Shown piece by piece: positions 714 through 64,000 of a stretch of 64,000 nt of DNA. How positions within the stretch are numbered: the first letter of the stretch is position 1; each line of letters begins with the position of its first letter. A program made the translations under genes and the position numbers. This DNA comes from Antedon mediterranea (Eukaryota > Animalia > Echinodermata): positions 4,441,888-4,505,887 of the forward strand of contig NC_092676.1 in NCBI RefSeq assembly GCF_964355755.1, in the 5' to 3' direction. The notes below the pieces were generated by a model that saw only the letters and a program-made list of their open reading frames with translations, was not told the DNA's origin and did no database searches.

Positions 714-785
714 GTCTTTGTACAGTAACCAAATAAGTACATTACCAGCCAATGTATTTGCTGATTTGACAGCATTGAAAACACT
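714..785 (+). CDS. LRR exon A1 SLYSNQISTLPANVFADLTALKTL
   Basis: ttttaag|72 nt|gtaagt, phase 2-2. Confidence 0.85.
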
Positions 786-3700
786 GTAAGTGTATTGCTT
801 ATGTTTGCTTACTTTTACCAATTTGGTTTTAATTTAGAAAATTAAATGAAAAATTGTTTTACATTGTTGGTTAAACAATGATAATGGATTAATATTATTA
901 TATAATTTCACAATTTGTGATCTTATAAAAAAACTTTAAAAATCAATCGTTTTTTGCTCATCCAACATTAACAAACTTTATTTTTTTGAATAATATTATA
1001 ATAATTCAAAATACATTTTTATTGTAACTGTCACAATATAAATATTATTATAACAAATGTTACTAAATAATTAGTATTTGTTTATTTAGTGATTTTGTTT
1101 TAAGAGAATAAAAATTATTAAAATATAAATATATATTTTATATTTTGACATTAAAATATTGATACAATACAGTGCATGTATTGTAGGTTCGATTGTAATA
1201 AGGGAGTAATAATATGTACTTTATGATTTCATGATTATTTATAGTAAAAATAATTTTAAAGTGAACATTTTAAAAATGTATTCACCATGATTGAACTATT
1301 TATTTTTGTAAGATCTAACAATTGAAACTGAATCTGTATTACATATAGATAACACATTTATTATATGGTTGCTATCAAACAATTTGAATTTGTTGTAGAC
1401 ATTATATTTTAATAAAATATACATTAAAATATACATTTTTATTTTAACATAATATATTTTGACATAACTAAAGTACATACAATAGAGTACATGCAGTATA
1501 ACTACTGTATAATGTACAGGAATGTAGACATTTCAACATTTGAGGTGACAGAAAAACTAAAATAATTTAAAAACAGCTTGGATATTGTGATTTACTTATA
1601 CTGTGCATTTTTTTACTTTTAAGGTCTTTGTACGATAACCAAATAAGTACATTACAAGCCAATGCATTTGCTGGTTTGACAGCATTGGAAACACTGTAAG
1701 TGTATTGCTTATGTTTAATTTTTTGCTCATCCAACATTAACAAATTTTATTTTTTTGAATAATATGTAATTCAAAATAAATTTTTATTGTAACTGTCACA
1801 AATATAAATATTATTATAACTAATGTTACTAAATAATTAGTATTTGTTTATGTAGTGATTTTGTTTTATGAGAATAAAAATCATCAAAATATAAATATAT
1901 ATTATATAGTTTTACATCATTAAAATGTTGATACAATACATTGCATGTATTGTAGGATAAATTGTAATAATGGACTAATAATATGTACCTTATGATTCCA
2001 TGATTATTTACAATAAAACCAATTTAAAAATCAACAATTTTTTAATTTTTTCACCATGATTGAACTATTTATTTTTGTAAGACAAAACAATTGAAACTGA
2101 ATCTGTATTACATATTAGATAATACATTAATTATATGGTTGTTAACAAACAATTTGAATTTGTTGTAGACATTTTATTTTTAATAAAATAAGTTATTAAA
2201 AATATATCACATTTTTACTTTAACATAGTATATTTTGACATAACTAAAGTACATACAATATAGTACATGCAATATAACTACTGTATAATGTACAGGAATG
2301 TAGACATTTCAACATTTGAGGTGACAGAAACACTAAAATAATTTAAGAACAGCTTTGATATTGTGATTTACTTATACTGTGCATTCTTTTTACTTTTAAG
2401 GTATTTGAGCAGTAACCAAATAAGTACATTACCAGCCAATGCATTTGCTGGTTTGGCAGCATTGAGAACACTGTAAGTGTATTGCTTATGTTTGCTTACT
2501 TTTACCAATTTGGTTTTAATTTAGAAATTAAATTACAAATTAATTTGAATTGTTGATTAAGCAATTATAATGGATTAATATTATTACATAATTGCACAAT
2601 TTGTGATCGTATAAAAAATATCTTTATAAATCACAAGTTTTTAGTTCATCCACCATGAAAGAACTTTATTTTTGTGTAATACATAATAATTCTGAATTAA
2701 TCTTAAATGTAAAATTTCACAATATAAATATCATTATAATGATTGTTATACTAATTAATTAGTATTTGTTTATGTAGTGATTTTGTTTTATGATAATAAA
2801 AATTATTAAAATATAAATATATATTTTATATTTTGACATCATTAAAATATTGATACAATACAATGTATGTATTGTAGGATCAATTGTAATAATTGACTAA
2901 TAATATGTACCTTATGATTTCATGATTATTCACAGTAAAACAAATTTAAAAAGCAACAATTTTGTAATTTATCCACCATGATTGAATTATTTATTTTTGT
3001 AAGATCTAACAATTGAAACTGAATCTGAATTACATATAGATAATACATTTATTATATGGTTGCTATCAAACAATTTGAATTTGTTGACATTTTGTTTTCA
3101 GAAAATATGTTAATCAAATAAATTTACAACATTTTTATTTTAACATAGTATATGTTGACATAACTAAAGTACATACAATAGAGTACATGCAGTATAAATA
3201 CTGTATAATGTACAGAAATGTAGACATTTCAACATTTGAGGTGACAGAAAAACTAAAATAATTTAAAAACAGCTTGGATATTGTGATTTACTAATACTGT
3301 GCATTCCTTTTACTTTTAAGGGAATTGGACAATAACCAAATAAGTACATTACCAGCCAATGCATTTGCTGGTTTGACAGCATTGGAAACACTGTAAGTAT
3401 ATTGCTTATGTTTGCTTACTTTTATCAATTTGATTTTAATTTAGAAATTAAATTATAAATTATTTTAAATTGTTGGTTAAGCAATTATAATGGATTAATA
3501 TTATTACATAATTTCACAATTTGTGATTGTATAAAAAAATATCTTTATAAATCACTAGTTTTTAGTTCATCCACCATGAATGAACTTTATTTTTGTGTAA
3601 TACATAATAATTAAAAATTAATCTTAAATGTAAAATTTCACAATATAAATACCATTATGATTGTTATACTAAATAATTAGTACATGTTTATGTAGTGATT

Positions 3701-6700
3701 CTGTTTATGAAAATAAAAATTATTAAAATATAAATGTATATTTTATATTTTGACATTATTAAAATATTGATACAATACAATGCATGCATAGTAGGATCAA
3801 TTGTAATAATGGACTAATAATATGTACCTTATGATTTCATGATTATTCACAGTAAAACAAATTTAAAAAGCAACAATTTTGTAATTTATCCACCATGATT
3901 GAATTATTTATTTTTGTAAGATCTAACAATTGAAACTGAATCTGAATTACATATAGATAATACATTTATTATATGGTTGCTATCAAACAATTTGAATTTG
4001 TTGACATTTTGTTTTCAGAAAATATGTTAATCAAATAAATTTACAACATTTTTATTTTAACATAGTATATTTTGACATAACTAAAGTACATACAATAGAG
4101 TACATGCAGTATAACTACTGTATAATGTACAGGAATGTAGACATTTCAACATTTGAGGTGACAGAAAAACTAAAATAATTCAAAAACAGCTTGGATATTG
4201 TGATTTACTTATACTGTGCATTCTTTTTACTTTTAAGGTATTTGTACAATAACCAAATAAGTACATTACAAGCCAATGCATTTGCTGGTTTGGCAGCATT
4301 GGAAACACTGTAAGTGTATTGCTTATGTTTGCTTACTTTTAACAATTTGGTTTTAATTTAAAAATTAAATTACAAATCATTTTGAATTGTTGATTAAGCA
4401 ATTATAATTGATTAATATTATTACATAATTGCACAATTTGTGATCGTATAAAAAATATCTTTATAAATCACAAGTTTTTAGTTCATCCACCATGAATGAA
4501 CTTTATTTTTGTGTAATACATAATAATTCTGAATTAATCTTAAATGTAAAATTTCACAATATAAATATCATTATAATGATTGTTATACTAATTAATTAGT
4601 ATTTGTTTATGTAGTGATTTTGTTTTATGATAATAAAAATTATTAAAATATAAATATATATTTTATATTTTTACATCATTAAAATGTTGATACAATACAT
4701 TGCATGTATTGTAGGATCAATTGTAATAATGGACTAATAATATGTACCTTATGATTCCATGATTATTTACAGTAAAAACCAATTTTAAAATCAACATTTT
4801 TAAAATGTATCCACCATGATTGAACTATTTATTTTTGTAAGATCTAACAATTGAAACTGAATCTGAATTACATATAGATAATACATTTATTATATGGTTG
4901 CTATCAAACAATTTGAATTTGTTGACATTTTGTTTTCAGAAAATATGTTAATCAAATAAATTTACAACATTTTTATTTTAACATAGTATATTTTGACATA
5001 ACTAAAGTACATACAATAGAGTACATGCAGTATAACTACTGTATAATGTACAGGAATGCAGACATTTCAACATTTGAGGTGACAGAAAAACCAAAATAAT
5101 TTAAAAACAGCTTGGATATTGTGATTTACTTATACTGTGCATTCTTTTTACTTTTAAGGGATTTGGAAAATAACCAAATAAGTACATTACCAGCCAATGT
5201 ATTTGCTGGTTTGACAGCATTGGAATACCTGTAAGTGTATTGCTTATGTTTGCTTACTTTTAACAATTTGGTTTTAATTTCGAAATTAAATTACAAATTA
5301 TTTTACATTGTTGGTTAAGAAATGATAATGGATTAATATTATTATATAATTTCACAATTTGTGATCTTATAAAAAAACTTAAAAAAGCAATAGTTTTTTG
5401 CTCATCCAACATGAACAAACTTTATTTTTTGGAATAATATTATAATAATTCAAAATACATTTTTATTGTAAATGTCACAAATATAAATATTATTATAACA
5501 AATGTTAATAAATAATTAGTATTTGTTTATTTAGTGATTTTGTTTTATGATAATAAAAATTAATAAAATATAAATATATATTTTGACATTAAATATTGAT
5601 ACAATACAGTGCATGTATTGTAGGATCAATTGTAATAATGGACTAATAATATGTACTTTATGATTTCATGATTATTTACAGTAAAACCAATTTTAAAATC
5701 AACATTTTTAAAATGTATCCACCATGATTGAACTATTTATTTTTTTTAAGATATAACAATTGATACTGAATCTGTATTACATATTAGATAATACATTTAC
5801 TATATTGTTGCTAACAAACAATTGAATTTTGTGTAGAAAATTTGTTTTAAGAAAATAAGTTATTTGAATATATTTACCACATTTGTATTTTAACATAGTA
5901 TATTTTGACATCACTAAAGTACATACAATAGAGTACATGCAGTATAACTACTGTATAATGTACAGGAATGTAGACATTTCAACATTTGAGGAGACAGAAA
6001 AACTAAAATAATTTAAAAACAGCTTGGATATTGTGATTTACTTATACTGTGCATTCTTTTTACTTTTAAGGTTTTTGTACAGTAACCAAATAAGTACATT
6101 ACAAGCCAATGCATTTGCTGGTTTGACAGCATTGGAAACACTGTAAGTGTATTGCTTATGTTTGCTTACTTTTACAATTTGGTTTTAATTTAGAAATTAA
6201 ATATAAAATTATTTTACATTGTTGGTTAAGCAATGATAATGGATTATTATTGTTACATAATTGTACACTTTGTGACCTAATAAAAATATCTTTATAAATC
6301 ACTAGTTTTTAGTTCATCCACCATGAATGAACTTTATTTTGGTGTAATACATAATAATTCAAAATTAATATTAATTGTAAAATTGTACAATATAAATATC
6401 ATTATAATGATTGTTATGCTAAATAATTAGTATTTATGTTGTAATTTTGTCTTATTAGAAAAAAATCATCAAAATATAAATACATATTATATATTTTGAC
6501 ATTATTAAAATATTGATACAAACAGTGCTTGCATTAATATTATTATATAATTTCACAATTTGTGATCTTGTAAAACATATCTTAAAAATCACTAGTTTTT
6601 TGCTCATCCACCATGAATGAACTTTTTATAATATATAATTCAAAAATAATTGTTATTGTAAATATCACAATATAAATATCATTATAACAAATGTTACTAA

Positions 6701-9700
6701 ATAATTAATATTTGTTTATGTTGTAAGTTTGTCTTAATTATAAGAAAAAAATTATTGAAATATAAATATATATTGTGATCATCTTTTAAAAAATCAATAG
6801 TTTTTAGTTCATCCACCGTGAATGAACTTTATTTTTGTGTAATACATAATAATTAAAAATAATAATAATAATTCAAAATCAATCACTATATAAATATCAT
6901 TATAATAATTACTATTTGTTTATGTAGTGATTTTGTTTTATGAGAATAAAAATTATTAAATATATATTTTATATTTTGACATTAAAATGTTGATACAATA
7001 CAGTGCATGTATTGTAGGTTCAATTGTAAAAATGGAGTAATAATATGTACTTTATGATTCAATGATTATTTACAGTAAAACCAATTTAAAAAGCAACAAT
7101 TTTGTAATGTATCCACCATGATTGAACTATTTATTTGTGTAAGATACTAAATATGTATTACATATTAGATAATACATTTATTGCATGGTTGCTAACAAAC
7201 AATTTGAATTTGGTGTAAAAATTTTCTTTTGTGAAAATAAGTAATTTAAATATATTTACCACATTTTTATTTTAACATAGTATATTTTGACATCACTAAA
7301 GTACATACAATAGAGTACATGCAGTATAACTACTGTATAATGTACAGGAATGTAGACATTTCAACATTTGAGGTGACAGAAAAAATAAATAATTTAAAAA
7401 CAGCTTGGATATTGTAATTTACTTATACTGTGCATTCCTTTTACTTTTAAGGTCTTTGAGCTATAACCAAATAAGTACATTACAAGCCAATGCATTTGCT
7501 GGTTTGACAGCATTGAAAAGACTGTAAGTGTATTGCTTATGTTTGCTTACTTTTACCTATTTTGTTTTATTTTGTTTTTTAAATTACGGATTCGGATTCT
7601 AACATTATTGACCTTTGACCTTGATTTATCATATCTTAGCAACCACTAATCTGAGAGACACACAATATGGCTCAAACTGTTCAGAAACTACATATTTATA
7701 TTTAGTCTAATGGCATGTTTTTGCAAAAAATGGCCGATTCTAACATTATTGACCTTTGAACTTTGCACTACATAAAATCGCATAACTTTGAAAATATTGT
7801 ACATATGAAATTATTTTTAGTGTCAAATTATTCAAAACATACATGTTTCTATAGAGTCCAATGACACATTATGTCCAATAATGACCTATTGTATGGTTAT
7901 TAACATTTGAACTATATTTGAAAAGGATTTTTAAACCCGGAATCTTCTTCATGTAGGCATTCATTAGAACATGTGATTTGGCACTACTTGTTTAGAATAT
8001 GGTGGTAATTTAAAGTGCATGTAACCAGTTGATTTAAATTAAATTTAAAAACTGAAAATATTCACTTAAAAAAAAATATTAGACTATATATACATACATT
8101 ATAGGTTTGGATTATTAATACATTTTTAATTAGGTCTTACATCTTACTCAGGAGAAAGTTGGTGTTGACACTATTAACAGAGCCAACAAAAATGTATTTT
8201 TTTTTATGATATATTGTACATACTTTAAATAGGCCATGCCATTTTGCAGGTTTATTAACGTTTTTTTCAAGTTAGTAATTTATTTTATTATCAAATTAAA
8301 TTGCCATTAAATGGCATATTCAAAAAAACAAATTTCTAAAGATTATTTAGTTTATATTTTGCTAAGGATAGCATCACTCTTGAGGGCATTCTTTTAGGTT
8401 GAAACATAGTCTTATTAAGAAGGCATTTTCTACTAATAGACGCATTGTTGACAACTGGAATTTTAAAAGATCGATATTAATGCAACATATTTAGTTTAGT
8501 TTAATTAATTGGCTATCGAGACTCATAATTAGGCTGACCACCACTTGCAATATTTTCGCCGTATACAGTAAAAACCTCAGTTTCTTATGGAATTTATTTA
8601 TTTATTTCAATAACCATATACAGTACGACTACTAGTGGTGTATAGTTTTTAAGCTTTTATAACTTGTTTTTGTACTTTTTTTACGTGAATGTATTGTGTA
8701 TGTACTATGTTTCTATGTGGTTTAATTTTTACCATTTTTTAACCATCAATTTTAATGCTTTTAATATAAATATCTTGTAATTCAGCTTCAGCTGCGAAGA
8801 CGATAAGAAATAAAACTTGTAGGCAGTTTGTGGATGAATGCAATAGTTTATGCTTATAAATTTAATGTACCATGGCCTACTTTAAACTAAACATAATAAG
8901 TCAACGTTGCAACTCTTACATTTTAGAGTGCCAAATCACATGTTCTAATGGATGTCCACATGAAGAAGATTCCGGGTTTAAAGACTTTTCAAATATAGTT
9001 CAAATGTTAATAACCATACAATAGGCCATTATTGGACATAATGTGTCATTGGACTCTATAGAAACATGTATGTTCTGAACAATTTGACACTAAAAATAAT
9101 TTCATATGTACAATATTTTCAAAGTTATGCGATTTTATGTAGTGCAAAGTTCAAAGGTCAATAATGTTAGAATCGGCCATTTTTTGCAAAAACGTGCCAT
9201 TAGACTAAATATAAATATGTAGTTTTTGAACAGTTTGAGCCATATTGTGTGTCTCTCAGATTAGTGGTTGCTAAGATATGATAAATCAAGGTCAAAGGTC
9301 AATAATGTTAGAATCCGCCATTTTTTGCAAAAACATGCCATTAGACTGGATATAAATGTGTAGTTTCTGAACAATTTAAGCCCTAATTTGTATTTCTCCA
9401 ATTAGGGGTTGCTGAGATATGATAAATCAAGGTCAAAGGTCAATAATGTTAGAAATAGCACTTCCATTCATTTTTGGACAAACTTTTTCATTAAAGTGAA
9501 TATAAAAACATATATTCTAACGATTTTGACACCATAATTAAGTATCTGTGACTAGCGGTTTCCAAGATACAGAGTACGTTATTAAAAATGGCGGCCATTT
9601 TTAATTATGCAAATTAGGCTACTTCCTTTTGTCGAAAAATGTCCTAACGTTGATAAATGTGTTCAGTAGGGTCTAAAGAACACATTTCATCAAAAAAACC

Positions 9701-12700
9701 TTTTCTTGCAATTTGTGTGAGTTAAAAGTCTAAATCCCATTGACTAGTATTGTAGGATCAATTGTATTAATGGACTAATAATATGTACTTTATGATTTCA
9801 TGATTATTTACAGTAAAACCAATTTTAAAATCAACATTTTTAAAATGTATCCACCATGATTGAACTATTTATTTTTTAAATAACAATTTAAACTGAATCT
9901 GTATTATATATTAAATAATACATTTATTTTATGGTTGCTATGTGTAATACATAATAATTCTGAATTAATCTTAAATGTAAAATTTCACAATATAAATATC
10001 ATTATAATGATTGTTATACTAAATAATTACTATTTGTTTATGTAGTGATTTTGTTTTATGAGAATTAAAATTATTAAAATATAAATATATATTTTATATT
10101 TTGACATTAAAATATTGATACAATACAGTGCATGTATTGTAGGTTCAATTGTAATAATGGAGTAATAATATGTACTTTATGATTTCATGATTATTTACAG
10201 TAAAACACATTTTAAAATAAACATTTTTTTAATTTATCCACCATGATTGAACTATTTATTTTTTTAAGATATAACAATTGAACTGAATCTGTATTACATA
10301 TAGATAATACATTTATTATATGGTTGCTATCAAACAATTTTTAATTTGTTGTAGAAATTTTATTTTAACAAAATAAGTTATTAAAATATATCACATTTTT
10401 ATTTTAACTTAGTATATTTTGACATCACTAAAGTACATACAATAGAGTACATGCAGTATAACTACTGTATAATGTACAGGAATGTAGACATTTCAACATT
10501 TGAGGTGACAGAAAAAATAAAATAATTTAAAAACAGCTTGGATATTATAATTTACTTATACTGTGCATTCTTTTTACTTTTAAGGTATTTGAGATATAAC
10601 CAAATAAGTACATTACAAGCCAATGTATTTGCTGGTTTGACAGCATTGAAATACCTGTAAGTATATTGCTTATGTTTGCTTACTTTTACCAATTTGGTTT
10701 TAAATTAGAAATTAAATGAAAAATTGTTTACATTGTTGGTTAAACAATGATAATGGATTAATATTATTATATAATTTCACAATTTGTGATCTTATAAAAA
10801 AACTTTAAAAATCAATAGTTTTTTTGCTCATCCAACATTAACAAACTTTATTTTTTTGAATAATATTATAATAATTCAAAATACATTTTTATTGTAACTG
10901 TCACAATATAATTATTATTATAACAAATGTTACTAAATAATTAGTATTTGTTTATTTAGTGATTTTGTTTTATGAGAATAAAAATGATTGAAATATAAAT
11001 ATATATTTTATATTTTGACATTAAAATATTGATACAATACAGTGCATGTATTGTAGGTTTGATTGTAATAAGGGAGTAATAATATGTACTTTATGATTTC
11101 ATGATTATTTATAGTAAAAATAATTTTAAAGTGAACATTTTAAAAAGTATTCACCATGATTGAACTATTTATTTTTGTAAGATCTAACAATTGAAACTGA
11201 ATCTGTATTACATATAGATAATACATTTATTATGGTTGCTATCAAACAATTTTTAATTTGTTGTAGAAATTTTATTTTAATAAAATATACATTAAAATAT
11301 ATCACATTTGTATTTTAACATAGTATATTTTGACATAACTAAAGTACATACAATAGAGTACATGCAGTATAACTACTGTATAATGTACAGGAATGTAGAC
11401 ATTTCAACATTTGAGGTGACAGAAAAAATAAAATAATTTAAAAACAGCTTGGATATTGTAATTTACTTATACTGTGCATTCTTTTTACTTTTAAGGTATT
11501 TGAGATATAACCAAATAAGTACATTACAAGCCAATGTATTTGCTGGTTTGACAGCATTGGAAACACTATAAGTGTATTGCTTATGTTTGCTTACTTTTAC
11601 CAATTTGGTTTTAATTTAGAAAATTAAATGAAAAATTGTTTTACATTGTTGGTTAAACAATGATAATGGATTAATATTATTATATAATTTCACAATTTGT
11701 GATCTTATAAAAAAACTTTAAAAATCAATAGTTTTTTTGCTCATCCAACATTAACAAACTTTATTTTTTTGAATAATATTATAATAATTCAAAATACATT
11801 TTTATTGTAACTGTCACAATATAAATATTATTATAACAAATGTTACTAAATAATAAATATTTGTTTATTTAGTGATTTTGTTTTATGATAATAAAAATTA
11901 ATAAAATATAAATATATATTTAGGCATTAAATATTGATACAATACAGTGCATGTATTGTAGGATCAATTGTATTAATGGACTAATAATATGTACTTTATG
12001 ATTTCATGATTATTTACAGTAAAACCAATTTTAAAATCAACATTTTTAAAATGTATCCACCATGATTGAACTATTTATTTTTTTTAATAACAATTTAAAC
12101 TGAATCTGTATTATATATTAAATAATACATTTATTTTATGGTTGCTATGTGTAATACATAATAATTCTGAATTAATCTTAAATGTAAAATTTCACAATAT
12201 AAATATCATTATAATGATTGTTATACTAAATAATTATTATTTGTTTATGTAGTGATTTTGTTTTATGAGAATAAAAATTATTAAAATATAAATATATATT
12301 TTATATTTTGACATTAAAATATTGATACAATACAATGTATGTATTGTAGGATCAATTGTAATAATGGACTAATAATATGTACCTTATGATTTCATGATTA
12401 TTCACAGTAAAACACATTTAAAAAGCAACAGTTTTTTTAATTTATCCCCCATGATTGAACTATTTATTTTTGTAAGATATAACAATAGAAACTGAATCTG
12501 TATTATATATTAGATAATACATTTATTATATGGTTGCTAACAAATAATTTTTAATTTGTTGTAGAAATTTTATTTAAACAAAATAAGTTATTAAAATATA
12601 TCACATTTTTATTTTAACATAGTATATTTTGCCATCACTAAAGTACATACAATAGAGTACATGCAGTATAACTACTGTATAATGTACAGGAATATAGACA

Positions 12701-27700: not shown

Positions 27701-30700
27701 CGAAAATGTTTTAGTCTCAACGATTATAAGCAATGTCTTAGTTAAGTCGAAGATGCTCTCCAGGTGGAATGTCATCCTGAGATGAGTAGTAGTAATTAGT
27801 CTTGTTTATTTTATTTCATTTATATGTACTTTTTACTTTCTATGGACCAGAGATTCCGAAATAAAAGATTGAATGAATGAATGAATGAATACTGAATGTC
27901 ATATAGACTGCCCAAACAAACATTGAGTAAACACCAGTGTCAGTCAATGAAATTCGAATGAACAACATTAATTATAATTGATTAATTGATTCAAAGATAT
28001 TTTTTTTCAATAAAAAAGAATGAAATTTTATCCTAATACTGAATCAAACAAATTATATGATTTTAATTACTATAAATTATTTTATTTGTGGTGTATGGTG
28101 TAGTCAGCTCCAGATACACTTTTCTTTCATCATTACCTCTACTGTATATTAACTACTGTAGTTTCAAGCAGGAATGCTAGTTACTCTCAGTATAACATTT
28201 TAAATCGTAATCTAGTAATCGTAGTCTTAAAGATACATTGTCCGCATATTTAAAAAAAAAGGTCACAAAAGTCACATAAATATTTAAATTCACTTTGACC
28301 AAAAATGTGATTATTTACAGTAAAAAGAAATTTCAAATAATTTTAACATCAACATTTTTAAAATGTATACACCTTGACTGAACTATTTATTTTTGTAAAA
28401 TATAACAATTGAAACTGAATAACATATTAGATAATACATTTATTATATGGTTGCTAACAAACAATTTGAATTTGTTGTAGAATTTTGTTTTTAGAAAATA
28501 AGTTATTAAAGTTATTTACCAAATTGTTATTTTTTATTGTATATTTTGACATCACTAAAGTATACAATAGATGGATTACATGCAGTATAATGTATTTACT
28601 GTACTACAATTTAATTTTAATTAAAAAGTTAAATTAAAAATTGTATTTTACATTGTAGAACAATTATAACAAAATATTTAATATATAATTATATTATTAT
28701 GTGATTATAAGTTTAAACCCCCACCCTCCTCCCACCAAAAAAAACAACTGGTTTTTAATGAATTTACCATGACTTTTAAAAATTTTTCGTATAATAATAT
28801 AATAAATCAAAATAAAATATAATTTAAGTGAGATTTATTTAATACATTTAGTATTTGTTTATGTAGTATAGGTTATATAGAGATTTTGTTTGAGTTATCA
28901 AAATATAAATAATTTTTTTAATATTAACAATTACTTTGTATTTCTCTTACTTTTAAGGATATTGCACATCGGGCAAGTCACTGATTACAGGTATTTTTTT
29001 CATAGTTACTCTTATGAATTTCTTTTGATTAATAATTAATTAGTTCAATGTATGTACAGCAAAAATGAATGCAAAAATGCTACACAGTTTTAATCTTTGC
29101 CATTTAATTATTATCATTCCGTTCAGGGTTAAGTGACACTAGGCCTACTATCACTACAGTTTGCTGTTAAAAAATAGAAGATATTTTGTCATGACTTGCA
29201 ACATGCCTATAAAAAAAATGGCTACAACAAACAGAATTTACCCTTTAAAAGATCCATTCAGTTGGTAATACAAATAAAATATAATTATATTTTTATTTAC
29301 TGTTACAATCTACGGTACTGTTATATTTTATTTTGTAACATAATTTAGTTTAAACAGTGGGCTATGAGAACAACATTTCTATTTTTATACCTTAGATATT
29401 GAATATGAATGAGTAAATGAATGTGAACAAAACAGGGCTATCAAACTAAAGTTAATTGACAAACATCTCATATTTCTTGTCTTGCTGCTTAAACCTTTTC
29501 TTTTAAAATCAAAACTAAACTAAACATTATTTACATATTTATTGTTTCGTTTATTTCTACTTTTTAAATTCATTTTTTATTTATGATTATTTTATTTTAT
29601 GTGGTTTTCATAAAATGAAGCATCATTCAGTACCTGTTTCATTTATTGAGTTGCAGGCTGCACTGCAGCAGTGGAATCAGGAATAAAAAAAAGTGGGGGG
29701 TATGTGGGTTTACAAAAATAACTGAATTTTGATGTATCTGTGTTGTCCACCTATATCACTAGAGTGTTATCCCGTTGAAAACAAAGAAAAGTACCTTTCA
29801 CAACCAGACAAAAAAAAACACAATATTGAATTCAATTTTGTGATAATTACCCAGTCGGAGAATTAGAATTCTTAGATCTAATCTTTAATGGTAACTAATG
29901 GTTTTAAATTATAGTTTATAGTAGTATACATAGTTTTGAATACTGCAATTTTTTTTTACTGAACTTTATTTTTTTTAGGCCTAACCTGGTGGAATCTAAT
30001 CAAATACGTACACTAGAAGCCAACGCATTTAATGGGTTGACATCACTGCCAGAACTGTGAGTATTTTTTGGGTAGGAATTTCTACAAAATTTCTAAAAAT
30101 TTCAAATAAAACTAAATTTTAGAAACTTTTTTTTCCAAACTAAAACCAACAGAAAAACATGGCACAAAATGGTATAATCATTATATTATAATAACGACGC
30201 AAAACTACAATTACAATCCTGTTGGTGCAGTACCCGCTGCTTACTTGGGCTCGAATCTAACCACTAGCCATCAGCGCAAGCTCGGTGGTCTAGAGGTATG
30301 AACGCCAGGCTAGTGATCTGGAGGTCGTGGGCTCGAGTCCCACCCGAGAACTACTTGCGAATTTTTTCGCAAGTATTCTCAAATGTACTTAGTATAAAGT
30401 ACAAATTACGTCAGAGTAGGGCAAAACATCTAATTTATTATGTAATACATAATATCTCAAAACATGAAATGTATTTAATGGTCTGCTACTTGGTTTACTA
30501 CATTGTTTTTCCTTGAAAAGGTGGTTGAGAGATTTCAATATAAGTACATTACCAGCAAATGCATTTTTAGGTTTGACAACATTGACATTGCTGTGAGTAT
30601 TTTTTCATGCTATATACTTATAATAATGATTGAATTACTTCATAAAAAATGATGTATAGCGTCTAATTCTCCGATATAAAGGCTATTTTAAAGAAAAGTA

Positions 30701-33700: not shown

Positions 33701-36700
33701 AGCTAATATGCTTAGCCCTAACCTAGATAAAGGCCTACTGTATGTAGAAAATAATTTAATCAATTTTGATAAAATAATAATTGGTGTAATATTTAATAAT
33801 GATACACTATTCCTGTTTTAGTAAGCTAGGTATATTACGAACGATTTTTATTTATTGTTGTCCATGTACGTACTAATAAACCTGGCGCTAGTTTCCTTCG
33901 CTTGTATGTTTACTCCAAATTTGATAACTAACTTTATCGTGTGAATACCACACCTTAGAAGTATACCTCATGAGTACTTTAATGAAAGAATCACATAAAA
34001 AGTAACAAATAAATCCTTAAATTAATGATTTTACAGGCGTGTTTCTCGCACACTGTTCGCGAATTTCACTTATTCAATGTTCAATATTTTTGTTTCTATG
34101 GAGCGCCAAAAGAGCAACGATAATAGAGGACTAAAACTCAGTGGAATGCGTCAATTTCTCATGCATTTATTGGTGAAAAACACGTTTTATTTCAATATAT
34201 TTGTTAATTTGTCAATAAAAATGTTGTAATATGTTACTGCTGATACTGTTCTGTTTTCAAAGAATAATAATCGATCCTAAATCAACATCACTACCTAGTC
34301 TAGACCTAGGACATCCTACTAAGGATATTATGATGAATTTTTCTATTTTATTCTTTAAAAGGTTAACGAAACCGTGTACATTATCAACAGTAACATTTTT
34401 CCTTACTGACAGTGACAAAATCTATTGAAATTGTACTTGATTTTCACCAAATAATGCGTTAAATATAAATGGATTCCACAGAGTTTTTAGCCCTCTAATT
34501 AATTTTGCTCTTTTGGCGTTCCATAGAAACCAAAATATTGAACATTGAGTGTGCGAAATGCGAGAAAAACAACGTCTGTAAAATCACCAATTTAATGGAT
34601 TTATTGTTACTTTTATGTGATTTTTCTTCATTAAAGTATGCCTAATTCTAAGCTGTGGTATTCAGGATAAAGCCTTGGTTAAATTACAAGGCAGGTGCAA
34701 AAGGAAACTAGCCTAGCGGGCCTAGGCCTAGGCTACTTCAATTTCGGTGATTTCCTGCCTTGCAATTTTGAGAAATGATAAAATGATGCCTCGCATTTTT
34801 TGATGATGGTAAAACGATGCCTCGCATAAATTTCTGACTTGCCTCGCATGCCTTCCCTGCCTCGCATGCCTTCCCTGCCTCGCGTGCCTCGCTGCCTCGC
34901 ACTTTGTTACTACCCATGTAGAATTAACAATAACAGATTATTATGTATTACCATAAAACTTTGAAAAGAAGGCAATTGCTGTTTCTTTTTTTAGGATTCT
35001 TGGGTGGGCTTCTTTTCGAGATATGCTAAATTTTGAGATGGGCTTCTTTTTGTGCCGCTCCTTTAGGAGCAGCACAAAACAAGCAAGCATTAGGAAACAG
35101 TTACCATTCGGAAGGTTACAGTTTGCTAGGGCTGAAAAAATGGGTATTTGGAAACCCGGACTGGGAATGGGGGCAAACCCCAAAATTATATAAGATGTAG
35201 AACTCAATAGATAATTTGCAATTAACTTACCTGCTCAAGCCTAAGCTAGCAAGACTATTATACTGTGCATTATTCATCATTTAAGGCGGTTGGAAGGTAA
35301 CCAAATACACACATTGGAAGCCAATGCATTTTCTGGTTTGGAATCATTGACAGAACTGTGAGTATTTTTTCAATACTTTTACAAACTTCCTAATTTCAAA
35401 AGAAACTATATTTATTGTTATTTAAGAACTATCTAATTATTCCAGTTGATACTGTATGTCATAGACTGCCCTAACATTGCTGTAACACCGGTGCCAATAT
35501 ATAGATCAGAGCAACAATATGAATTAATTATATTATTGTTTATATACATGATTATTTGATTCAAAGATCTCTTTTGTCACTAATTTTTTTTTTACACCAT
35601 AATACTGTATCAAACAACTTGGATTTTCCATACTATGAATTATTTTTCTGTATCAAACAACTATGATATAATAATTTTACTTTATTATGAAAAAATTATT
35701 TTGAAGGCGTTTGAATGGTCACAAAATCAGTACATTGCCAGCTAATGCATTTAATGGTTTGACAGCATTAACAACACTGTAAGTGTTTTCTCTTGTTCAT
35801 ATTGTCCTCTTAGGGGTTGGCCATTGTGTTATAACATATATTGCCCATCGTTTGCGTAAAGTGTCTTCTGAATAGAGCTGTCCTACAGTAAATCTTACTC
35901 ATTATAGTAAATTAATTGGTTAAGCTAATTATATAATAGGGTCTGTTGATTTATCTTTTAACAGGAACTTAGATAACAACGCTATAACTACCATAGATCC
36001 TGAGGCATTTTCTTTTGTTGTTTCATCACTTTCGATTTTGTAAGTTAACACTGTGCAATTTGTCCATAACCTATATTGGTATGATTTATATCAGGATCAA
36101 GAGAGAGAACATCCACCTTTTATTGCCTCAATTAAATCATCCTTATCACTTTGGCCTATTTTTAATAAACAGTAATTATGTTTATGTACATAAGATTTAC
36201 CAATAAAATCTATTGACGTACTCTTCAATTTCAGAAATCATAGATCCAAATACTTGATAATTGCTTGACTCTATTACATGGTTATATATTGCAGAAATTG
36301 ATTGATTTTTTTTAAATTGAAGAAATTTAGTGTTAGTTACTTTGACGTGGTCATGTACTAACAAGTAAAACCACCTTTAAAAAAAACAAACTACAATAAC
36401 TAAACACTCGAATATAAACATATTATTAGAAGTTCTGTACAGTATTATATTATTATTATTATTATTTATTATTATAATAAGAAATGTTATGTATACAACA
36501 TAGATATATTAAGTAAGTAATGAATGAAAGAAGAGAAAGTGTGAAACATACAGAGTTCTAGACAAAAAAAAGTTGATACAAAGAAAAACACCTGAAATAA
36601 TAATTTTGGCAACTCTGGTAATTCTTCTTGTACATTCTTAACAATGTTTAATTTAGTGTTTGAATTTGTTATTTTTAGAAAGTTAAGAGGCAACAAGTTA

Positions 36701-38080
36701 AAGGTTTACAGAGATAGAACTTTTCAGCAATTTACAAACTTAAAAGAATTGTAAGCATTGATAGATCTACATACAAAACTTCAACTTATTATTCATAAAA
36801 GAGAAATATTTTGGCACATATGGCATTTCATACGTATACTATTTGAGCTTAAAACACCAAGTGTAACGTAAACAAGACAATAAATACAGACTTAGGGTAA
36901 ACTTAAAAGTATTGCAAAAGACATGTAGAAAACATGAATTTAAAAATTTTGAAATGTTGGTCCTGATCTATTTAAAACATCCTAAAATTTAATGAAATTC
37001 CTGTAAGATACAACAAATAATAACTTAGCATATGTTGCTATTTTTTATTCTTTTAGGTACTCGGAATACTCTAGTCTCTGTTGCCTTGTTGGCGCCATCG
37101 ATGTCTGCGAGCCTTCAGATGCATTTGCATCGTGTGAAGACTTGCTAAAAAATGAACTTCTCCGTGTGTTGATGATGATTATCGGGTTATCTTCGGTCAT
37201 TGGGAATGTTGTTGTTATCGTTTCACGAAAGTTTAAAAAAGATAATGATATTAACAATGTTAACAAAGTCCAAACCACACTAATTACCAACCTCGCCGTG
37301 TCTGACCTGCTGATGGCAGTCTACCTGATCATCATTGCCAGTGTGGATATACATTACAGAGGAAGATACGGAAAGGTTTCCAGAGTTTGGAGAAATAGTG
37401 TCCTTTGCAGTTTTGCAGGGGCTATTTCTACACTCTCTGGGCAATGCTCAGTGTTTACACTGATGCTGCTGAGTGTCGATCGAGCTATTAACATTGTTAA
37501 TCCATTTAGTACGAAACGCCTCAACCGTACAAAATGTCGAATCATTATAAGCTTCGGATGGCTATTCTGGATTGTGCTGAGTTTTCTTCCAGTAATAGCC
37601 AATGAATTAAACTTATCGTATTTTGGTGACAATTATTATGGAAAGGAAAGTGTGTGCCTTGCACTACCTTTAACCAGAAGTCGGTGGCCAGGTTGGGAGT
37701 ATGCTGTTGCTATTTTTGTTGCCTTTAATGGCGTCGGCTTTTTTGTAATTGTACTTAGTTATCTGACAATTTTCTTGTCAGTGAAAAGATCGGGGGCCAC
37801 TGTCAATAGAAGACAGAGGAGGAAAGAACAGTTAAAAATGGCGAGAAAACTAGGCTTAATAGTTTTCACTGATTTCTGTTGCTGGGCCCCGATTATAGTA
37901 ATGGCAATTGGTTCCGAGACGGGTTGGATGACGATTCCTGATGACATATATGTTTGGGCAGCGACATTCATCATACCCATCAACTCCTCAGTCAATCCGT
38001 ATCTTTACACAATTGCTTATATGTTTAAGTGCAAAGTGCGTCAACCGGCACCTGTACAGATTCCACTTAATACATTGTAA
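714..38080 (+). CDS. LRR-containing GPCR, type C LGR (GRL101/RXFP-like), 5'-partial; >=26 intact single-LRR exons plus a terminal hinge/7TM exon
   Basis: Series of AG..GT-bounded phase-2 exons, each encoding one typical LRR (xLxxNQIxTLxxxAFxGLxxLxxL), ending in exon 37057-38080 with the type-C hinge (LCC...CEP.DAFASCEDLL) and a class A 7TM. The signal peptide and any LDLa modules would lie upstream of the window. Confidence 0.92.
1624..1695 (+). CDS. LRR exon A2 SLYDNQISTLQANAFAGLTALETL
   Basis: ttttaag|72 nt|gtaagt. Confidence 0.85.
2401..2472 (+). CDS. LRR exon A3 YLSSNQISTLPANAFAGLAALRTL
   Basis: ttttaag|72 nt|gtaagt. Confidence 0.85.
3321..3392 (+). CDS. LRR exon A4 ELDNNQISTLPANAFAGLTALETL
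   Basis: ttttaag|72 nt|gtaagt. Confidence 0.85.
4238..4309 (+). CDS. LRR exon A5 YLYNNQISTLQANAFAGLAALETL
   Basis: ttttaag|72 nt|gtaagt. Confidence 0.85.
5159..5230 (+). CDS. LRR exon A6 DLENNQISTLPANVFAGLTALEYL
   Basis: ttttaag|72 nt|gtaagt. Confidence 0.85.
6071..6142 (+). CDS. LRR exon A7 FLYSNQISTLQANAFAGLTALETL
   Basis: ttttaag|72 nt|gtaagt. Confidence 0.85.
7452..7523 (+). CDS. LRR exon A8 SLSYNQISTLQANAFAGLTALKRL
   Basis: ttttaag|72 nt|gtaagt. Confidence 0.85.
7593..9746. mobile_element. Non-autonomous long-TIR (foldback/Academ-like) DNA element, left TIR truncated
   Basis: 7593-7985 is the reverse complement of 8927-9317; internal subrepeats carry AGGTCAAAGGTCA; the right end ...gacta abuts resumed intron repeat. 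Confidence 0.6.
10585..10656 (+). CDS. LRR exon A9 YLRYNQISTLQANVFAGLTALKYL
   Basis: ttttaag|72 nt|gtaagt. Confidence 0.85.
11496..11567 (+). pseudogene. LRR pseudo-exon A10 YLRYNQISTLQANVFAGLTALETL with donor mutated GT>AT
   Basis: Intact acceptor and ORF, but followed by ataagt instead of gtaagt; read-through gives CTA TAA (stop). Confidence 0.75.
12795..12866 (+). CDS. LRR exon A11 YLSDNQISTLPANTFAGLTALETL
   Basis: ttttaag|72 nt|gtaagt. Confidence 0.85.
14551..15311 (-). repeat. Inverted, exon-less copy of the class A intron unit
   Basis: Reverse complement matches the intron blocks, e.g. tatacagtagttgtactgcatgtactctattgtatgtac vs gtacatacaatagagtacatgcagtataactactgtata. Confidence 0.9.
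15330..15593 (-). mobile_element. 3' fragment of a non-LTR retrotransposon
   Basis: Minus strand reads NIPVCRTNRLKTSPALTISRILN, resembling the C-terminus of CR1/L2/Jockey-group ORF2, then an AT-rich 3'UTR. Confidence 0.4.
16167..16238 (+). CDS. LRR exon B WLDGNQIHTLEAYAFAGLESLTGL
   Basis: catttaag|72 nt|gtgagt. Confidence 0.82.
16433..17749 (-). mobile_element. Non-autonomous Helitron
   Basis: On the minus strand: A|TCTATATAT... start, and a 3' GC hairpin (ctagagggggagcgagcgaagcgagctcaccctctag) ending CTAG|T; absent from sister introns. Confidence 0.75.
18614..18685 (+). CDS. LRR exon B WFDFNQIHTLEAYAFAGLESLTGL
   Basis: catttaag|72 nt|gtgagt. Confidence 0.8.
18880..20196 (-). mobile_element. 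Non-autonomous Helitron (duplicate of 16433-17749)
   Basis: Same termini, +2447. Confidence 0.75.
21061..21132 (+). CDS. LRR exon B WFDFNQIHTLEAYAFAGLESLTEL
   Basis: catttaag|72 nt|gtgagt. Confidence 0.8.
21399..23453. mobile_element. Non-autonomous MULE/MuDR-like element, copy 1 (left TSD missing)
   Basis: Imperfect TIRs GAGTGTTGACAAAGTGCGAGGCAGCGAGGC / GCCTCGCTGCCTCGCACTTTGTTACTACCC with subterminal TGCGAGGCA repeats; nested degenerate inverted repeat ~22443-23268. Confidence 0.75.
23824..23895 (+). CDS. LRR exon B' RLEGNQIHTLEANAFSGLESLTEL
   Basis: catttaag|72 nt|gtgagt. Confidence 0.82.
24239..24310 (+). CDS. LRR exon C RLNGHKISTLPANAFNGSTALTTL
   Basis: ttttgaag|72 nt|gtaagt. Confidence 0.78.
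24614..26064 (+). mobile_element. Non-autonomous Helitron (second family member)
   Basis: A|TCTATATAT start, 3' hairpin ctagatggtacgcgagcgaagcgagcgtaccatCTAG|T; paralogous empty site near 31285. Confidence 0.75.
26639..26710 (+). CDS. LRR exon D RLDGNQISTLPALAFNGLSALTDL
   Basis: ctttgtag|72 nt|gtgagt; also the tail of ORF 26526..26714. Confidence 0.85.
27127..27190 (+). pseudogene. Truncated LRR exon B' RLEGNQIHTLEAYAFASLES (3' end and donor eroded)
   Basis: Acceptor intact; the gacagaact|gtgagt seen in sister copies is replaced by tggagttt. Confidence 0.7.
27245..27890 (+). mobile_element. 5'-truncated LINE (CR1/L2-group-like) ORF2 C-terminus with AATAAA and (GAAT)n tail
   Basis: ORFs 27252..27515 and 27540..27785 (YLGHVIS..DDFDIKRQ..., FRTYC..MY), in-frame stop between them; microsatellite tail. 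Confidence 0.8.
29979..30056 (+). CDS. 78-nt LRR exon PNLVESNQIRTLEANAFNGLTSLPEL
   Basis: ttttttag|78 nt|gtgagt, in frame, phase 2-2. Confidence 0.65.
30280..30348 (+). mobile_element. tRNA-derived SINE head / tRNA pseudogene
   Basis: A-box-like TGGTCTAGAGG and B-box-like GGCTCGAGTCCC; acceptor-like ends ctcgg/ccgag. Confidence 0.5.
30521..30592 (+). CDS. LRR exon WLRDFNISTLPANAFLGLTTLTLL
   Basis: ttccttgaaaag|72 nt|gtgagt. Confidence 0.72.
31050..31121 (+). CDS. LRR exon RLDGNQIRKLPANVFNGLIALTDM
   Basis: tttttgtag|72 nt|gtgagt. Confidence 0.82.
31565..31636 (+). CDS. LRR exon B WLDGNQIHTLEAYAFAGLESLTEL
   Basis: catttaag|72 nt|gtgagt. Confidence 0.83.
31945..32016 (+). CDS. LRR exon C RLNAHKISTLPANAFNGLTALTTL
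   Basis: ttttgaag|72 nt|gtaagt. Confidence 0.8.
32692..32763 (+). CDS. LRR exon D RLEGNQISTLPARAFNGLSALTDL
   Basis: ttttgtag|72 nt|gtgagt. Confidence 0.85.
32838..34915. mobile_element. Non-autonomous MULE/MuDR-like element, copy 2, with 9-bp TSD ATGTAGAAT
   Basis: TSD at 32829-32837 and 34916-34924; single-copy empty site at 26776-26784; a 9-bp TSD and G-rich TIR ends fit the Mutator superfamily. Confidence 0.82.
35286..35357 (+). CDS. LRR exon B' RLEGNQIHTLEANAFSGLESLTEL
   Basis: catttaag|72 nt|gtgagt. Confidence 0.83.
35707..35778 (+). CDS. LRR exon C RLNGHKISTLPANAFNGLTALTTL
   Basis: ttttgaag|72 nt|gtaagt. Confidence 0.8.
35965..36039 (+). CDS. Unique 75-nt LRR exon NLDNNAITTIDPEAFSFVVSSLSIL
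   Basis: ttttaacag|75 nt|gtaagt, phase 2-2. Confidence 0.82.
36679..36750 (+). CDS. Last LRR exon KLRGNKLKVYRDRTFQQFTNLKEL
   Basis: atttttag|72 nt|gtaagc. Confidence 0.82.
37057..38080 (+). CDS. Terminal exon: LGR type-C hinge (YSEYSSLCCLVGAIDVCEPSDAFASCEDLL) and intronless 7TM
   Basis: ORF 37142..38080 extended to the acceptor ttttag. Motifs: NLAVSDLLM (TM2), W..S..C (ECL1/TM3), DRA, SVCLALPL (ECL2), IVFTDFCCWAPI (TM6), PINSSVNPYLYT (TM7). Confidence 0.95.
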
Positions 38081-38792
38081 TTTGGCTATTTATTGCATTC
38101 AATCTTTGATCAGAGAGTTGCAATTAAGAACTCTCTGCTTTGATCTTGTTTTAATCACATTTTTATCACTGTACCTGTAAACTTTTTACTAATATCATTT
38201 AAAAGCATTTTATTATTATACAATTATCTTAATTCTTGTACAATTCATATTTTTGTTTGTGCTAAAAAGATTTAAGAATTTATATGTCAAGATTGTAGAA
38301 TATTTAATGAATTCATCAATGTAGTTTGCTAATTTAAATTTTCAAGATTTCAGTATATTTATATGCCCAATTAAATTATTCATCAATGTATTTTGGTAAT
38401 GTTGTTTTATAATTGTCAAGATTTTAGTATATATAATTTATTCAATTTATTTTAAGTTTTGTCACGATTTTAAAGAAATACATCTATTCCTAATTAGTAA
38501 TTTCATTATTGATCTGTGGATGTTTCATAGATTCAAACTACTTTATTCATTAATAGTTGTAAATTATTGTTAATTGGTAACTAGTTTGGTGAATATTACG
38601 CGAGTTCTATCTAAACCATCTATGGTAATTTGGTTTTTATAAATATGTCTGAAAAACTTTTAGTATCTTCTAAATACATAAGTCAATCTAGTCTAGTTTT
38701 AGTTTAAACAATGTTTTGAGTTAAGTACTCCATTAAACATGGTTTAAGTTGTCTAACATTGTTTGAAACATGAAAAGAAATCTGATTTTATC

Positions 38793-41988: not shown

Positions 41989-43799
41989 TTTCCTGCTACT
42001 GTACTACTTCTACTATATATAGGATATCAGAATGTTTGTAAATGTTAACAATGCATGACAGCATTAGACATTGAATTTCATTTTGTTATTTCCATAAACT
42101 CTTTAATACCTTACTTTATACTGTACAGCATCGCTCTATGCTCTTACAGGAAGATAAACTGAAACAATATTTATTTCGCTTACCTGCTAACTAACGAACT
42201 CCTGATTTTACAGAATAATGCAAAATATTTAATAACTAAATGAATGATGGGTTTATTTTGATGGATCTTTTATCTTTATAAAAGAAAACTAATAAAAATC
42301 TGGCCTACAGTAGCTGCTTTAAACCAACCAGAAATAGGTAAAAATCAGGAGGCGATAGAGAAATACTTACATTAACATTTTTACTAATATTAGCAGTCCT
42401 GTCCAAATAATGGTGCATATTGATAACGTTTAGTCCATACACAAATTCATCATTAGTGTGCCGCTGATGAAATATTTATTTTCCTCATTTTGACAATGCG
42501 GTATGGAGGAACATAGGATAACTACCAAAACCGCAAATGGAAGTCATCTAATATTATATGATGTTTGTCATGAAAAATGAATCATGAAGTACTGCAGGTA
42601 CTGTATTTTGGGATATATTTTTTTCTTTTTTGCTTCTGCTGCAGAATCCAATTTAAAAACATTCACCTGCTCGGCAGTAATAGTCCGGTCCCTAAGGGGA
42701 AATGATGTTACCATAGTGGATACAAGTGTGCCCTTTGGCATGTTGATAGAACATGATATGGAGATACCAAAACAAAGTTACTGGAAATCTGATTTGACCT
42801 CTGTGACCTCTGACCTCAATTTTTATATTTCTATCTTAAACAGCCATATCTCGGCAACGGGTTGGACAATTGAAATGATATTGGTGTCAAATAGGTCAGA
42901 GGGTACATATTTATATTCGCTCTAATAGAACTTTTTAAAAATAAACGACCCGAAATGTAATTTCTGAATGTTTTGACCTTTGACCTCGGCTTACTATATC
43001 TCAATAACTACTGGTCAAAATTTTTTGAAGTTTGTTTCAAATTGATAAGAGCATACATATTTATATATACTCTAATTAAACATGTTCTTCCAAATTCACA
43101 GGAAATGTCATTTACTGACCTTTGACCTTTACTGTTTGAATATTTCTGTATCTCTGTAACCAAATGTCAAAAAAAGTTCAGTTTGGTATCAAATTGTTCA
43201 GAATGTAAACATTTATATTAACTCTAATAGAAGATGTTATCATATTTTTACTGAAAATGCCAGTTATCGCAGTTTGAGGTATGACCAGGATATACTGTTA
43301 AGTGTGCGCGTGTCATACTTATATACCCAAAATATAGATTTAATGGACCAGAACTTTATCCAATATCCTAGTTAGTTTACCTCTTACAATTTTCTTTAAA
43401 CTTAAATTTTCATTTAATTTCAATATATAATTCCATCGCATGGTAGGCCTACACCAAAGAGCAACACTCAATATCAACATAAAATTAGATAAACTTAAAG
43501 TTGATTAACATTTTAAAAAAAAGAAAGAAAATCAAGAACTTAAAGAAATAAAAGAAGAATTAACCAATGCGTTTTGATACTCATAAAACATATGACCTAA
43601 TTACCAATTCATTGCTTGAAGTATGCTGAAAAAATGAAATGTTGAAAACAGTGAGGAAAAAGCGAAGAAAAAGTGAAAAATAAAAACATATGCTTAAAAT
43701 ATTAGAAATCTGAAAAGGATCAAAGACAAATTAATTACAAAGCTGATTTCTTTCCAAGAACATTCTGTAGTGGAATATAAAAGGAAAACGAACCAGTTA

Positions 43800-63911: not shown

Positions 63912-64000
63912 CTGTTTCATTTCATTAATTTTATGCATCCAAGAGAGAAATATCATTTTTTTTTTTAAAGGAATAAAAGAAATTAAAAGATGAAAAGGCT

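Follow-up and report, generated by a model that had tools for sequence, protein, structure and literature searches.

What does a run of 28 one-LRR exons do in front of a single GPCR exon? The array lies in a 64,000-nucleotide stretch of the feather star Antedon mediterranea (hereafter the window), and an initial annotation, made from the letters alone, had proposed a variable receptor diversified by cassette shuffling and/or alternative splicing. The answer we favour, with reasonable though incomplete confidence, is an inherited repertoire: the gene would belong to a young family of LRR-only LGRs that is diversified in the germline, selected on its binding face and likely used to recognize fast-evolving ligands.

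All 28 cassettes lie at 714-36750, on the plus strand and in phase 2-2, upstream of an exon for the hinge and 7TM domain. Twenty-five are 72 nt long, one is 75 nt (35965-36039), one is 78 nt (29979-30056) and one is broken after about 63 nt (27127-27189). The locus contains the following features.

714..12866, plus strand: group A, eleven 72-nt cassettes in exon-plus-intron units of about 0.9 kb, with hypervariable head and tail codons
714-785, 1624-1695, 2401-2472, 3321-3392, 4238-4309, 5159-5230, plus strand: group A cassettes 1-6
6071-6142, 7452-7523, 10585-10656, 11496-11567, 12795-12866, plus strand: group A cassettes 7-11
11496..11567, plus strand: cassette 10, donor GT changed to AT
12867-14473, no strand assigned: intron-unit relics of group A without exon, direct
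14551-15322, no strand assigned: intron-unit relics of group A without exon, inverted
15907..21316, plus strand: young repeat of 2,447 bp, present as two full copies and one partial copy, 99.2% identity
16167-16238, 18614-18685, 21061-21132, plus strand: cassettes 12-14, carried by the 2,447-bp repeat
21398..24333, plus strand: 3-kb segment with a high-copy element and cassettes 15 and 16; copy at 32837-35801, 96.6%
23824-23895, 24239-24310, plus strand: cassettes 15 and 16, within the 3-kb segment
26639..26710, plus strand: cassette 17, 72 nt
27127..27189, plus strand: cassette 18, broken after about 63 nt, without a normal donor
28958..28990, plus strand: 33-nt phase 2-2 exon
29979..30056, plus strand: cassette 19, 78 nt
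30521-30592, 31050-31121, 31565-31636, 31945-32016, 32692-32763, plus strand: cassettes 20-24
35286-35357, 35707-35778, plus strand: cassettes 25 and 26
35965..36039, plus strand: cassette 27, 75 nt, the divergent penultimate LRR, also represented in paralogue models
36679..36750, plus strand: cassette 28, 72 nt, divergent last LRR running into the hinge
37057..38080, plus strand: single intact exon with short Cys hinge, rhodopsin-type 7TM and tail

A DNA profile recovered 26 of the 28 cassettes at E <= 5e-15 and gave no significant cassette match on the minus strand of the window; the two divergent last cassettes were located by motif scan and by reading the sequence. The combined exon and motif pattern occurs 25 times on the plus strand of 1-37000, never on the minus strand and never in 38100-64000, and shuffling produced one match across 20 shuffles pooled. 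Cassette table, profile and shuffle control bear out the count of 28 phase 2-2 single-LRR cassettes before one hinge and 7TM exon given by the initial annotation. Its further point, that any subset of intact cassettes splices in frame, follows from their frame symmetry and from the junction codons, which specify L, M or I in all possible pairings. Both splice sites are kept in 24 of the 25 72-nt cassettes, and a frame of 968 codons with no internal stops runs through the 26 intact cassettes and the last exon. Cassette 10 (11496-11567) is likely skipped, or else read through into a stop. The array was also rightly said to run off the window: 1-806 matches 871-1716 at 86%, so the window opens within another repeat unit. 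The 33-nt exon had been overlooked. It is a shortened group-A-like cassette whose peptide is also present in paralogue models P0118 and P0121, and with the 78-nt exon it makes up an irregular repeat retained in paralogue models.

The receptor is an LGR, with a rhodopsin-family 7TM domain after a Cys hinge and LRRs. Exon 37057-38080 matches Pfam 7tm_1 (E 2.7e-31), and its top matches in a PDB sequence search were RXFP1 (best, E 9.8e-47), LHCGR (7.2e-31), FSHR and TSHR, with LGR4 at 2.6e-12. By similarity, 7TM and hinge appear closest to relaxin receptors, of the RXFP/GRL101 kind, a type C assignment that rests on the PDB search, the 7TM tree having contained no type A, type B or RXFP rows. To this extent the earlier label of type-C LGR stands; it fits the ectodomain less well, where close relatives with complete-looking N-termini (P0128, P0086 and P0003) have no Ldl_recept_a match. 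A match is present in the more distant relative P0004. LDLa was thus likely lost in the Antedon clade, as judged from relatives, the gene's own 5' end lying beyond the window. The 26 intact cassettes in the window also compare with about 7-9 LRRs in type C LGRs (PMC9545775). A conserved GRL101 orthologue was considered and rejected: the window exon falls outside the clade of Lymnaea GRL101 and its kin in the 7TM tree, where the rows from Lymnaea, Acanthaster, Ptychodera and arthropods group apart in a 28-row clade (SH-aLRT 99).

The window exon belongs to an Antedon-only clade of 31 rows (SH-aLRT 100), in whose 30 proteins LDLa was not detected. Eight family proteins, spread over three contigs, are 92.9-98.8% identical in the 7TM exon, and in the nearest copies the 7TM is 97-99% constant. 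In line with the shuffling idea, near-identical paralogue models differ in cassette number and order, with three distinct 3' cassette orders and 12 head types that are absent from the window; these orders come from RefSeq protein models, which are frequently truncated 5' and may skip exons. One of them is also matched by a joint in a public sequencing run, X4, described below. P0130, whose 7TM is 64% identical, carries an independent array that is variable at the same positions. Family size was counted from proteins because summed contig depth, which was above that of the introns at the 7TM exon in all four public runs, gives no copy number here. The family escapes standard annotation: the RefSeq protein with a 100% identical 7TM exon (Antedon mediterranea XP_071956207.1, P0079, 'GRL101-like') includes only the last five of the 28 cassettes. 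When the LRR region of P0121 was used as a query, all matches were generic LRR proteins, most of them unnamed. The initial annotation overlooked the gene's membership of a large young family, the source of much of the diversity.

The array itself bears marks of duplication and exchange. The recent amplification that had been suspected is evident in the 2,447-bp repeat (99.2%) and the 3-kb duplicate (96.6%), and the exon-less intron relics at 12867-15322 appear to be traces of rearrangement. Support was also obtained for mosaic cassettes: exon and intron trees disagree, no single tree fits the group A sites, and 51% of informative site pairs are incompatible, compared with 26% when data were simulated on a tree (none of 500 simulations reached the observed value). 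Repeated selected changes could also raise this incompatibility. In introns alone the exchange test gave P 0.062, and a distance-permutation recombination test was not significant (P 0.29). An assembly artefact was rejected for group A, whose units are only 85-95% identical. The copies of the 99.2% repeat (15907-21316) differ at coding sites.

Variation within the cassettes is non-random and strongly focused; the initial annotation had already singled out its pattern as unusual. In group A, the 11 youngest cassettes, 18 of 23 changes fall within 5 of 23 codons around the beta-strand (P 1e-8). At these five strand-face codons, picked from the LRR consensus but after the data had been seen, pN is 0.463, against 0 at seven framework codons, while pS over the exon is 0.017. 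Minimal changes number 22 non-synonymous and 1 synonymous (P 0.004-0.019). Mean distances are 0.064 for the intron, 0.32 for the head, 0.034 for the core and 0.30 for the tail, and the strand-face codons of group A are about five times as divergent as the intron. Between copies 1 and 2 of the 2,447-bp duplicate, 3 of 6 differences lie in the exon head (P 8e-6). Of 10 duplicate pairs, five show no enrichment and five are significant, two of the latter through the same three sites. Group B has a weak excess only (pN 0.35 at the five codons, pS 0.24 overall). These counting tests, made on group A, point to diversifying selection on its concave-face residues, which would be weak in group B.

Splicing could be followed in run X4, which is public, comes from a relative and behaves like RNA but is not recorded as such; in this one run, family cassettes are spliced at the predicted sites. 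Its contigs contain cassette joints 20>21, 21>22, 23>24 and 25>26, three of them exact GT..AG joints: 30592>31050, 32016>32692 and 35357>35707. Since neighbours are found joined, strict mutual exclusion is ruled out for those pairs. Nine exon-exon joints were found among the matches listed for the array outside group A, five between neighbours and four out of window order. Joints were read from 15 of 27 rows; 27>28 and 28>7TM are absent among the matches listed, and X4 has no cover around cassette 28. At least 31 letters lie on both sides in just 2 of 6 tabulated joints, and a non-neighbour joint, from a 23-like to a 25-like cassette, has 47 letters on its shorter side. Non-neighbour joints are not assignable to one locus and may stem from paralogues. 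A further run, X5, contains pieces with zero differences and possibly derives from the very sample that was assembled; it was excluded as independent support, and the organism label of X4 differs from that of the run with these pieces.

On the favoured reading, cassettes likely multiply, drop out and swap pieces through unequal crossover and gene conversion in the germline, with selection likely promoting novel residues at the predicted binding face. Most intact cassettes would be spliced in order into one long solenoid of 26 or more LRRs, with the two broken cassettes skipped and the frame kept, and the solenoid would signal via the conserved hinge and 7TM. Its ligands are likely fast-evolving and probably non-self, their class being putative.

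A close parallel is with brown-algal ROCO genes, as had been suggested. In both systems each LRR is one 72-nt phase-2 exon, LRR number varies between young paralogues, dead cassettes lie in introns and positive selection targets a small number of residues on the concave face (Zambounis et al. 2012, PMC3341825; Teng et al. 2024, PMC11378527). By analogy, the array would work like these and not like VLRs. Alternative splicing of ROCO LRR exons has been reported (PMC3341825, PMC11378527). The ROCO array, however, belongs to a cytosolic GTPase and has intact LRR exons on the non-coding strand too, whereas that of the feather star encodes the ectodomain of an animal GPCR of the rhodopsin type and has none there, only the inverted intron pieces at 14551-15322. 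With GRL101 and type C2 LGRs the gene shares an RXFP/GRL101-like 7TM and short Cys hinge. Ambulacrarians have a single copy of GRL101, a receptor with about 6 LRRs and many LDLa modules (Roch and Sherwood 2014, PMC4079206; Veenstra 2021, 10.1101/2021.04.15.440029), in contrast to a gene with 26 or more intact LRRs, outside the orthologue clade and with close relatives lacking LDLa. GRL101-like expansions such as the Biomphalaria SudRes2 cluster, for which a recognition role has been suggested, are multi-copy and prone to presence/absence, as in the feather star (PMC12297450). Lineage-specific expansion with a very long LRR arm is also known from Trichoplax, where 41 of 46 LGRs are placozoan-specific and Tadh-LGR-15 has 34 LRRs, so the repeat number here is by itself no record; placozoan LGRs have their own hinge type, and the description cited mentions no exon arrays, young amplification or selection (PMC9545775).

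Could the array instead be a library, with each transcript or cell taking its own subset of cassettes by combinatorial alternative splicing? The frame symmetry of intact cassettes, the uniform L/M/I junctions, the four of nine joints that depart from window order and the need to skip two dead cassettes anyway would suit such a system. Dscam also chooses subsets, by a different mechanism. We hold this to be unlikely, since the other five joints connect neighbours, the joint leading into cassette 27 agrees with paralogue models P0081 and P0119, and an H-type to H-type joint agrees with the succession of cassettes 12-15; LGRs also ordinarily have one LRR per phase-2 exon (PMC11378527). Less probable by far is somatic diversification, in which upstream cassettes would act as donors, and individual cells would copy or recombine them into the receptor they express. 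In VLRs, such copying is deaminase-dependent and made into an incomplete gene. Mosaic heads and tails and clustered multi-base changes do resemble short conversion tracts, but germline conversion explains the same mosaics, the minus strand is without cassettes, and V(D)J-type signal motifs were not found flanking the cassettes. VLRs and the feather-star gene have 24-residue LRR modules and concave-face variation in common, yet VLR cassettes are non-functional, unspliced germline donors beside an incomplete gene (PMC13428168), whereas nearly all the 72-nt cassettes here keep both splice sites. They are spliceable exons within a complete GPCR gene, and family cassettes are spliced in a relative; on anatomy, the VLR analogy drawn earlier does not hold. 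Within-animal repertoires in general, in which the hypervariable single-LRR exons of a family of near-identical GPCRs would be spliced combinatorially or exchanged somatically, seem rather unlikely; if real, they would represent VLR-like or Dscam-like anticipatory recognition, G-protein-coupled, in an invertebrate deuterostome.

Two other readings keep germline amplification and differ in its meaning, and both strike us as very unlikely. Under neutral or weakly constrained amplification, the framework would be under purifying selection while exposed residues drift. Two of the 28 cassettes are dead, the array is filled with high-copy elements and intron relics, pN is close to pS in group B, and other LGRs have long LRR arms (26 in a sponge, 34 in a placozoan). 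Drift, however, cannot make exposed codons some five times as divergent as flanking introns, nor a 22:1 excess of non-synonymous changes, and for group A this reading is already disfavoured. Alternatively, the same germline diversification could serve chemosensation or gamete/mate recognition and not defence. GPCRs are the usual chemoreceptors, but a long solenoid of LRRs whose concave face is under selection is suited to macromolecular ligands. In starfish, sensory tentacles are enriched in a GRL101-like transcript, but that receptor has six LDLa motifs (PMC6267866), and clustered GRL101-like genes map to schistosome resistance in a snail (PMC12297450).

Recognition diversity in echinoderms has been described in terms of large germline families of TLRs, NLRs and scavenger receptors (PMC13428168). 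To these, an inherited repertoire would add a hormone-receptor-type GPCR family whose binding arm is remodelled one exon at a time, with selection on just a few of its residues, a concrete candidate for how invertebrates broaden ligand recognition. In the open-licence literature, no paper on this crinoid family was found among the matches listed. The array may also offer a naturally modular LRR scaffold whose variable code consists of five residues. An AlphaFold model of paralogue P0121 (mean pLDDT 79.5), with LGR4 as its best fold match, has strands at 29-31, 53-55 and 77-79 that cross cassette junctions, and the splice junction is predicted to fall mid-beta-strand in each cassette. One concave-face rung would thus combine the tail of one cassette with the head of the next, so that any reordering would yield a new rung.

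The single-LRR cassettes upstream of the 7TM exon are a genuine feature of the window, and the count of 28 in the initial annotation was borne out, all of them + strand and phase 2-2. Lengths are 72 nt (n = 25), 75 nt (n = 1) and 78 nt (n = 1), with one further cassette broken after ~63 nt. The array and its neighbors are as follows.

714-36750, + strand: cassettes 1-28
714-12866: cassettes 1-11 (group A)
11496-11567: cassette 10, with donor AT instead of GT
12867-15322: pieces of the group A unit without the exon, plus inverted pieces, directly after cassettes 1-11
21398-23440 and 32837-34900: element of ~2 kb
28958-28990: 33-nt exon
37057-38080, + strand: last exon, encoding a short Cys hinge and a 7tm_1 domain
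42581-42925, + strand: 114-codon open frame
53688-63998, - strand: large gene

A DNA profile trained on 20 of the cassettes and searched against both strands of the window matched 26 at E <= 5e-15, and the minus strand gave no match. Similarly, an exon-plus-motif pattern was found 25 times in the array and was absent from the opposite strand and the remainder of the window; 20 shuffles gave it once in total. In-frame splicing of intact cassettes, as originally proposed, holds, with only L, M or I possible as junction codons; 26 intact cassettes and the last exon together give 968 codons without internal stops. The array does run off the window start, as the first bases already lie within a further repeat unit. 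Overlooked in the earlier exon inventory was the 33-nt exon, whose peptide is present in two paralogue models immediately upstream of the counterpart of the 78-nt exon. Read-through of the donor reaches a stop after a single residue in 27 of the 28 cassettes (714-36750), and retention of an intron, or polyadenylation within one, would thus give a secreted LRR-only protein; this stop follows from the phase-2 donor consensus and perhaps has no biological meaning.

By sequence comparison, the closest solved structure to the last exon's product is RXFP1. Over 340 residues the exon shows 100% identity to P0079, this gene's RefSeq model in the feather star Antedon mediterranea (XP_071956207.1, 'GRL101-like'), which holds only cassettes 24-28 and a non-LRR stretch, leaving the bulk of the array unannotated. 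Eight further Antedon proteins, one with two accessions, share 92.9-98.8% identity with it in this exon; they are spread over three contigs. A 7TM tree (quick mode, midpoint root; without type A, type B or RXFP rows) was built from 139 rows including the window, these being the ones among 140 sequences that matched over >=200 residues. The window falls in an Antedon-only clade of 31 rows (SH-aLRT 100), two of which are this gene, and 13 Anneissia rows join it (SH-aLRT 100). The GRL101 rows of Lymnaea, Acanthaster, Ptychodera and arthropods form a separate clade (SH-aLRT 99), and the available part of Veenstra (10.1101/2021.04.15.440029) gives one such orthologue per ambulacrarian species. An LDLa pattern was found in none of the 44 Antedon and Anneissia rows, though 5' truncation is common among the models; Pfam finds no LDLa in three relatives with complete-looking N-termini and does find one in P0004, a more distant relative. 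The gene therefore belongs to a side-branch of crinoids in which LDLa was likely lost and the LRR arm extended.

Long LRR arms (<=21 motif matches), without LDLa by pattern, are also seen in a separate GRL101-like clade (P0051-P0062, P0064, P0067, P0070, including P0052 of Amphiura filiformis), and LRR expansion on such receptors may have more than one origin within echinoderms. The models of two family members have other N-terminal parts, a proline-rich stretch (P0087) and a 380-residue non-LRR region (P0006), which may be true domain swaps or fused gene models.

Cassettes 1-11 lie in ~0.9-kb exon-plus-intron units with 85-95% mutual identity, cassettes 12-14 are carried by a 2,447-bp repeat (99.2%), and cassettes 15-16 recur as 25-26 within a 3-kb duplicate (96.6%). 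The ~2-kb element has inverted ends that are themselves internally repeated and shows high depth in DNA-like runs; it is likely a DNA transposon and was copied along with two cassettes. In the paralogue models, cassettes of the same classes follow one another in three different orders at the 3' end, and 12 head types absent from the window occur; both are read from gene models in which exon skipping is possible.

Variation within group A is concentrated. Around the beta-strand, the five codons other than leucine, picked after the data had been looked at, have pN 0.463 and hold 18 of 23 changes in 5 of 23 codons; pN is 0 in the seven framework codons and pS is 0.017 across the whole exon. Minimal changes are 22 non-synonymous to 1 synonymous (P 0.004-0.019), and mean distances are 0.064 (intron), 0.32 (head), 0.034 (core) and 0.30 (tail). 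In the youngest duplicate (2,447 bp), three of six differences lie in the exon head (P 8e-6); five of ten duplicate pairs show no such enrichment, and the same sites underlie two of the significant pairs. The signal is weak in group B (pN 0.35, pS 0.24). P0130, a protein with a 64% identical 7TM, has an independent array variable at the same positions as group A. Group A sites are also incompatible with a single tree (51% of pairs versus 26% expected; 0 of 500 simulations as high). Exchange between these cassettes is thus likely rather than proven, because introns taken by themselves yield P 0.062 and a distance test was non-significant.

An AlphaFold model of the paralogue P0121 (32-row alignment, mean pLDDT 79.5) places an LRR solenoid atop the 7TM, with LGR4 as best fold match. 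In each of its predicted strands (29-31, 53-55, 77-79), the junction leucine is flanked by the final residue of the preceding cassette and the first of the following one. LRR strands of this kind line the concave, ligand-binding face. The available part of PMC11378527 places them likewise.

Germline diversification is the best-supported reading. Frame-symmetric exons would allow unequal crossover and conversion to alter cassette number, order and strand-face residues with the protein unbroken; selection would preserve the framework and drive exposed residues to change, and gene duplication would distribute variants across many near-identical signaling domains. The suggested likeness to brown-algal ROCO LRR arrays stands: this system works in a similar way, as far as the available portions of PMC3341825 and PMC11378527 describe them. 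The analogy to agnathan VLRs was not sustained: judged by the accessible text of PMC13428168, that is a different system. A long LRR arm by itself is already known among LGRs, with 26 LRRs in a sponge and 34 in a placozoan (PMC9545775, in part). The accessible text of a paper on octopus GPCRs mentions LRRs in 5 of 22 sequences and no exon arrays. No publication on this crinoid family was found in the open-licence literature. The selection pattern, and by analogy a snail GRL101-like cluster linked to schistosome resistance (PMC12297450, available part), suggest a role in non-self recognition; a sensory role is a possible alternative. Generation of repertoires within one animal, a bolder reading, seems unlikely.

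Four of 14 public runs, none of the 14 being recorded as RNA, were compared with 24400-38400, and one of them, X4, alone with 29900-38400, a range that lies outside group A. X4 has low repeat depth relative to the other three, and from its exact GT..AG joints (30592>31050, 32016>32692, 35357>35707) we infer that it is RNA carrying a related organism's label. Among the best 15 of 27 and 12 of 15 rows are nine exon-exon joints, five between window neighbors and four between non-neighbors, and none for 27>28 or 28>7TM. Of the non-neighbor joints, one agrees with two models, P0081 and P0119, and a second follows the order seen in cassettes 12-15. Heads missing from the window occur in some joints, and only two of the six exon-exon joints among the 15 of 27 have >=31 letters on both sides. 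These joints show that cassettes of the family splice as predicted; at the window locus itself, alternative splicing is a candidate mechanism.

Elsewhere in the window, the 114-codon frame opens with hydrophobic, signal-like residues and matches nothing in Pfam. The large gene, also without a Pfam match, has very long low-complexity exons with open stretches of 1,296 and 354 codons, and its piece at 63585-63998 may resemble the N-terminal part of CEP295, a centriolar protein.
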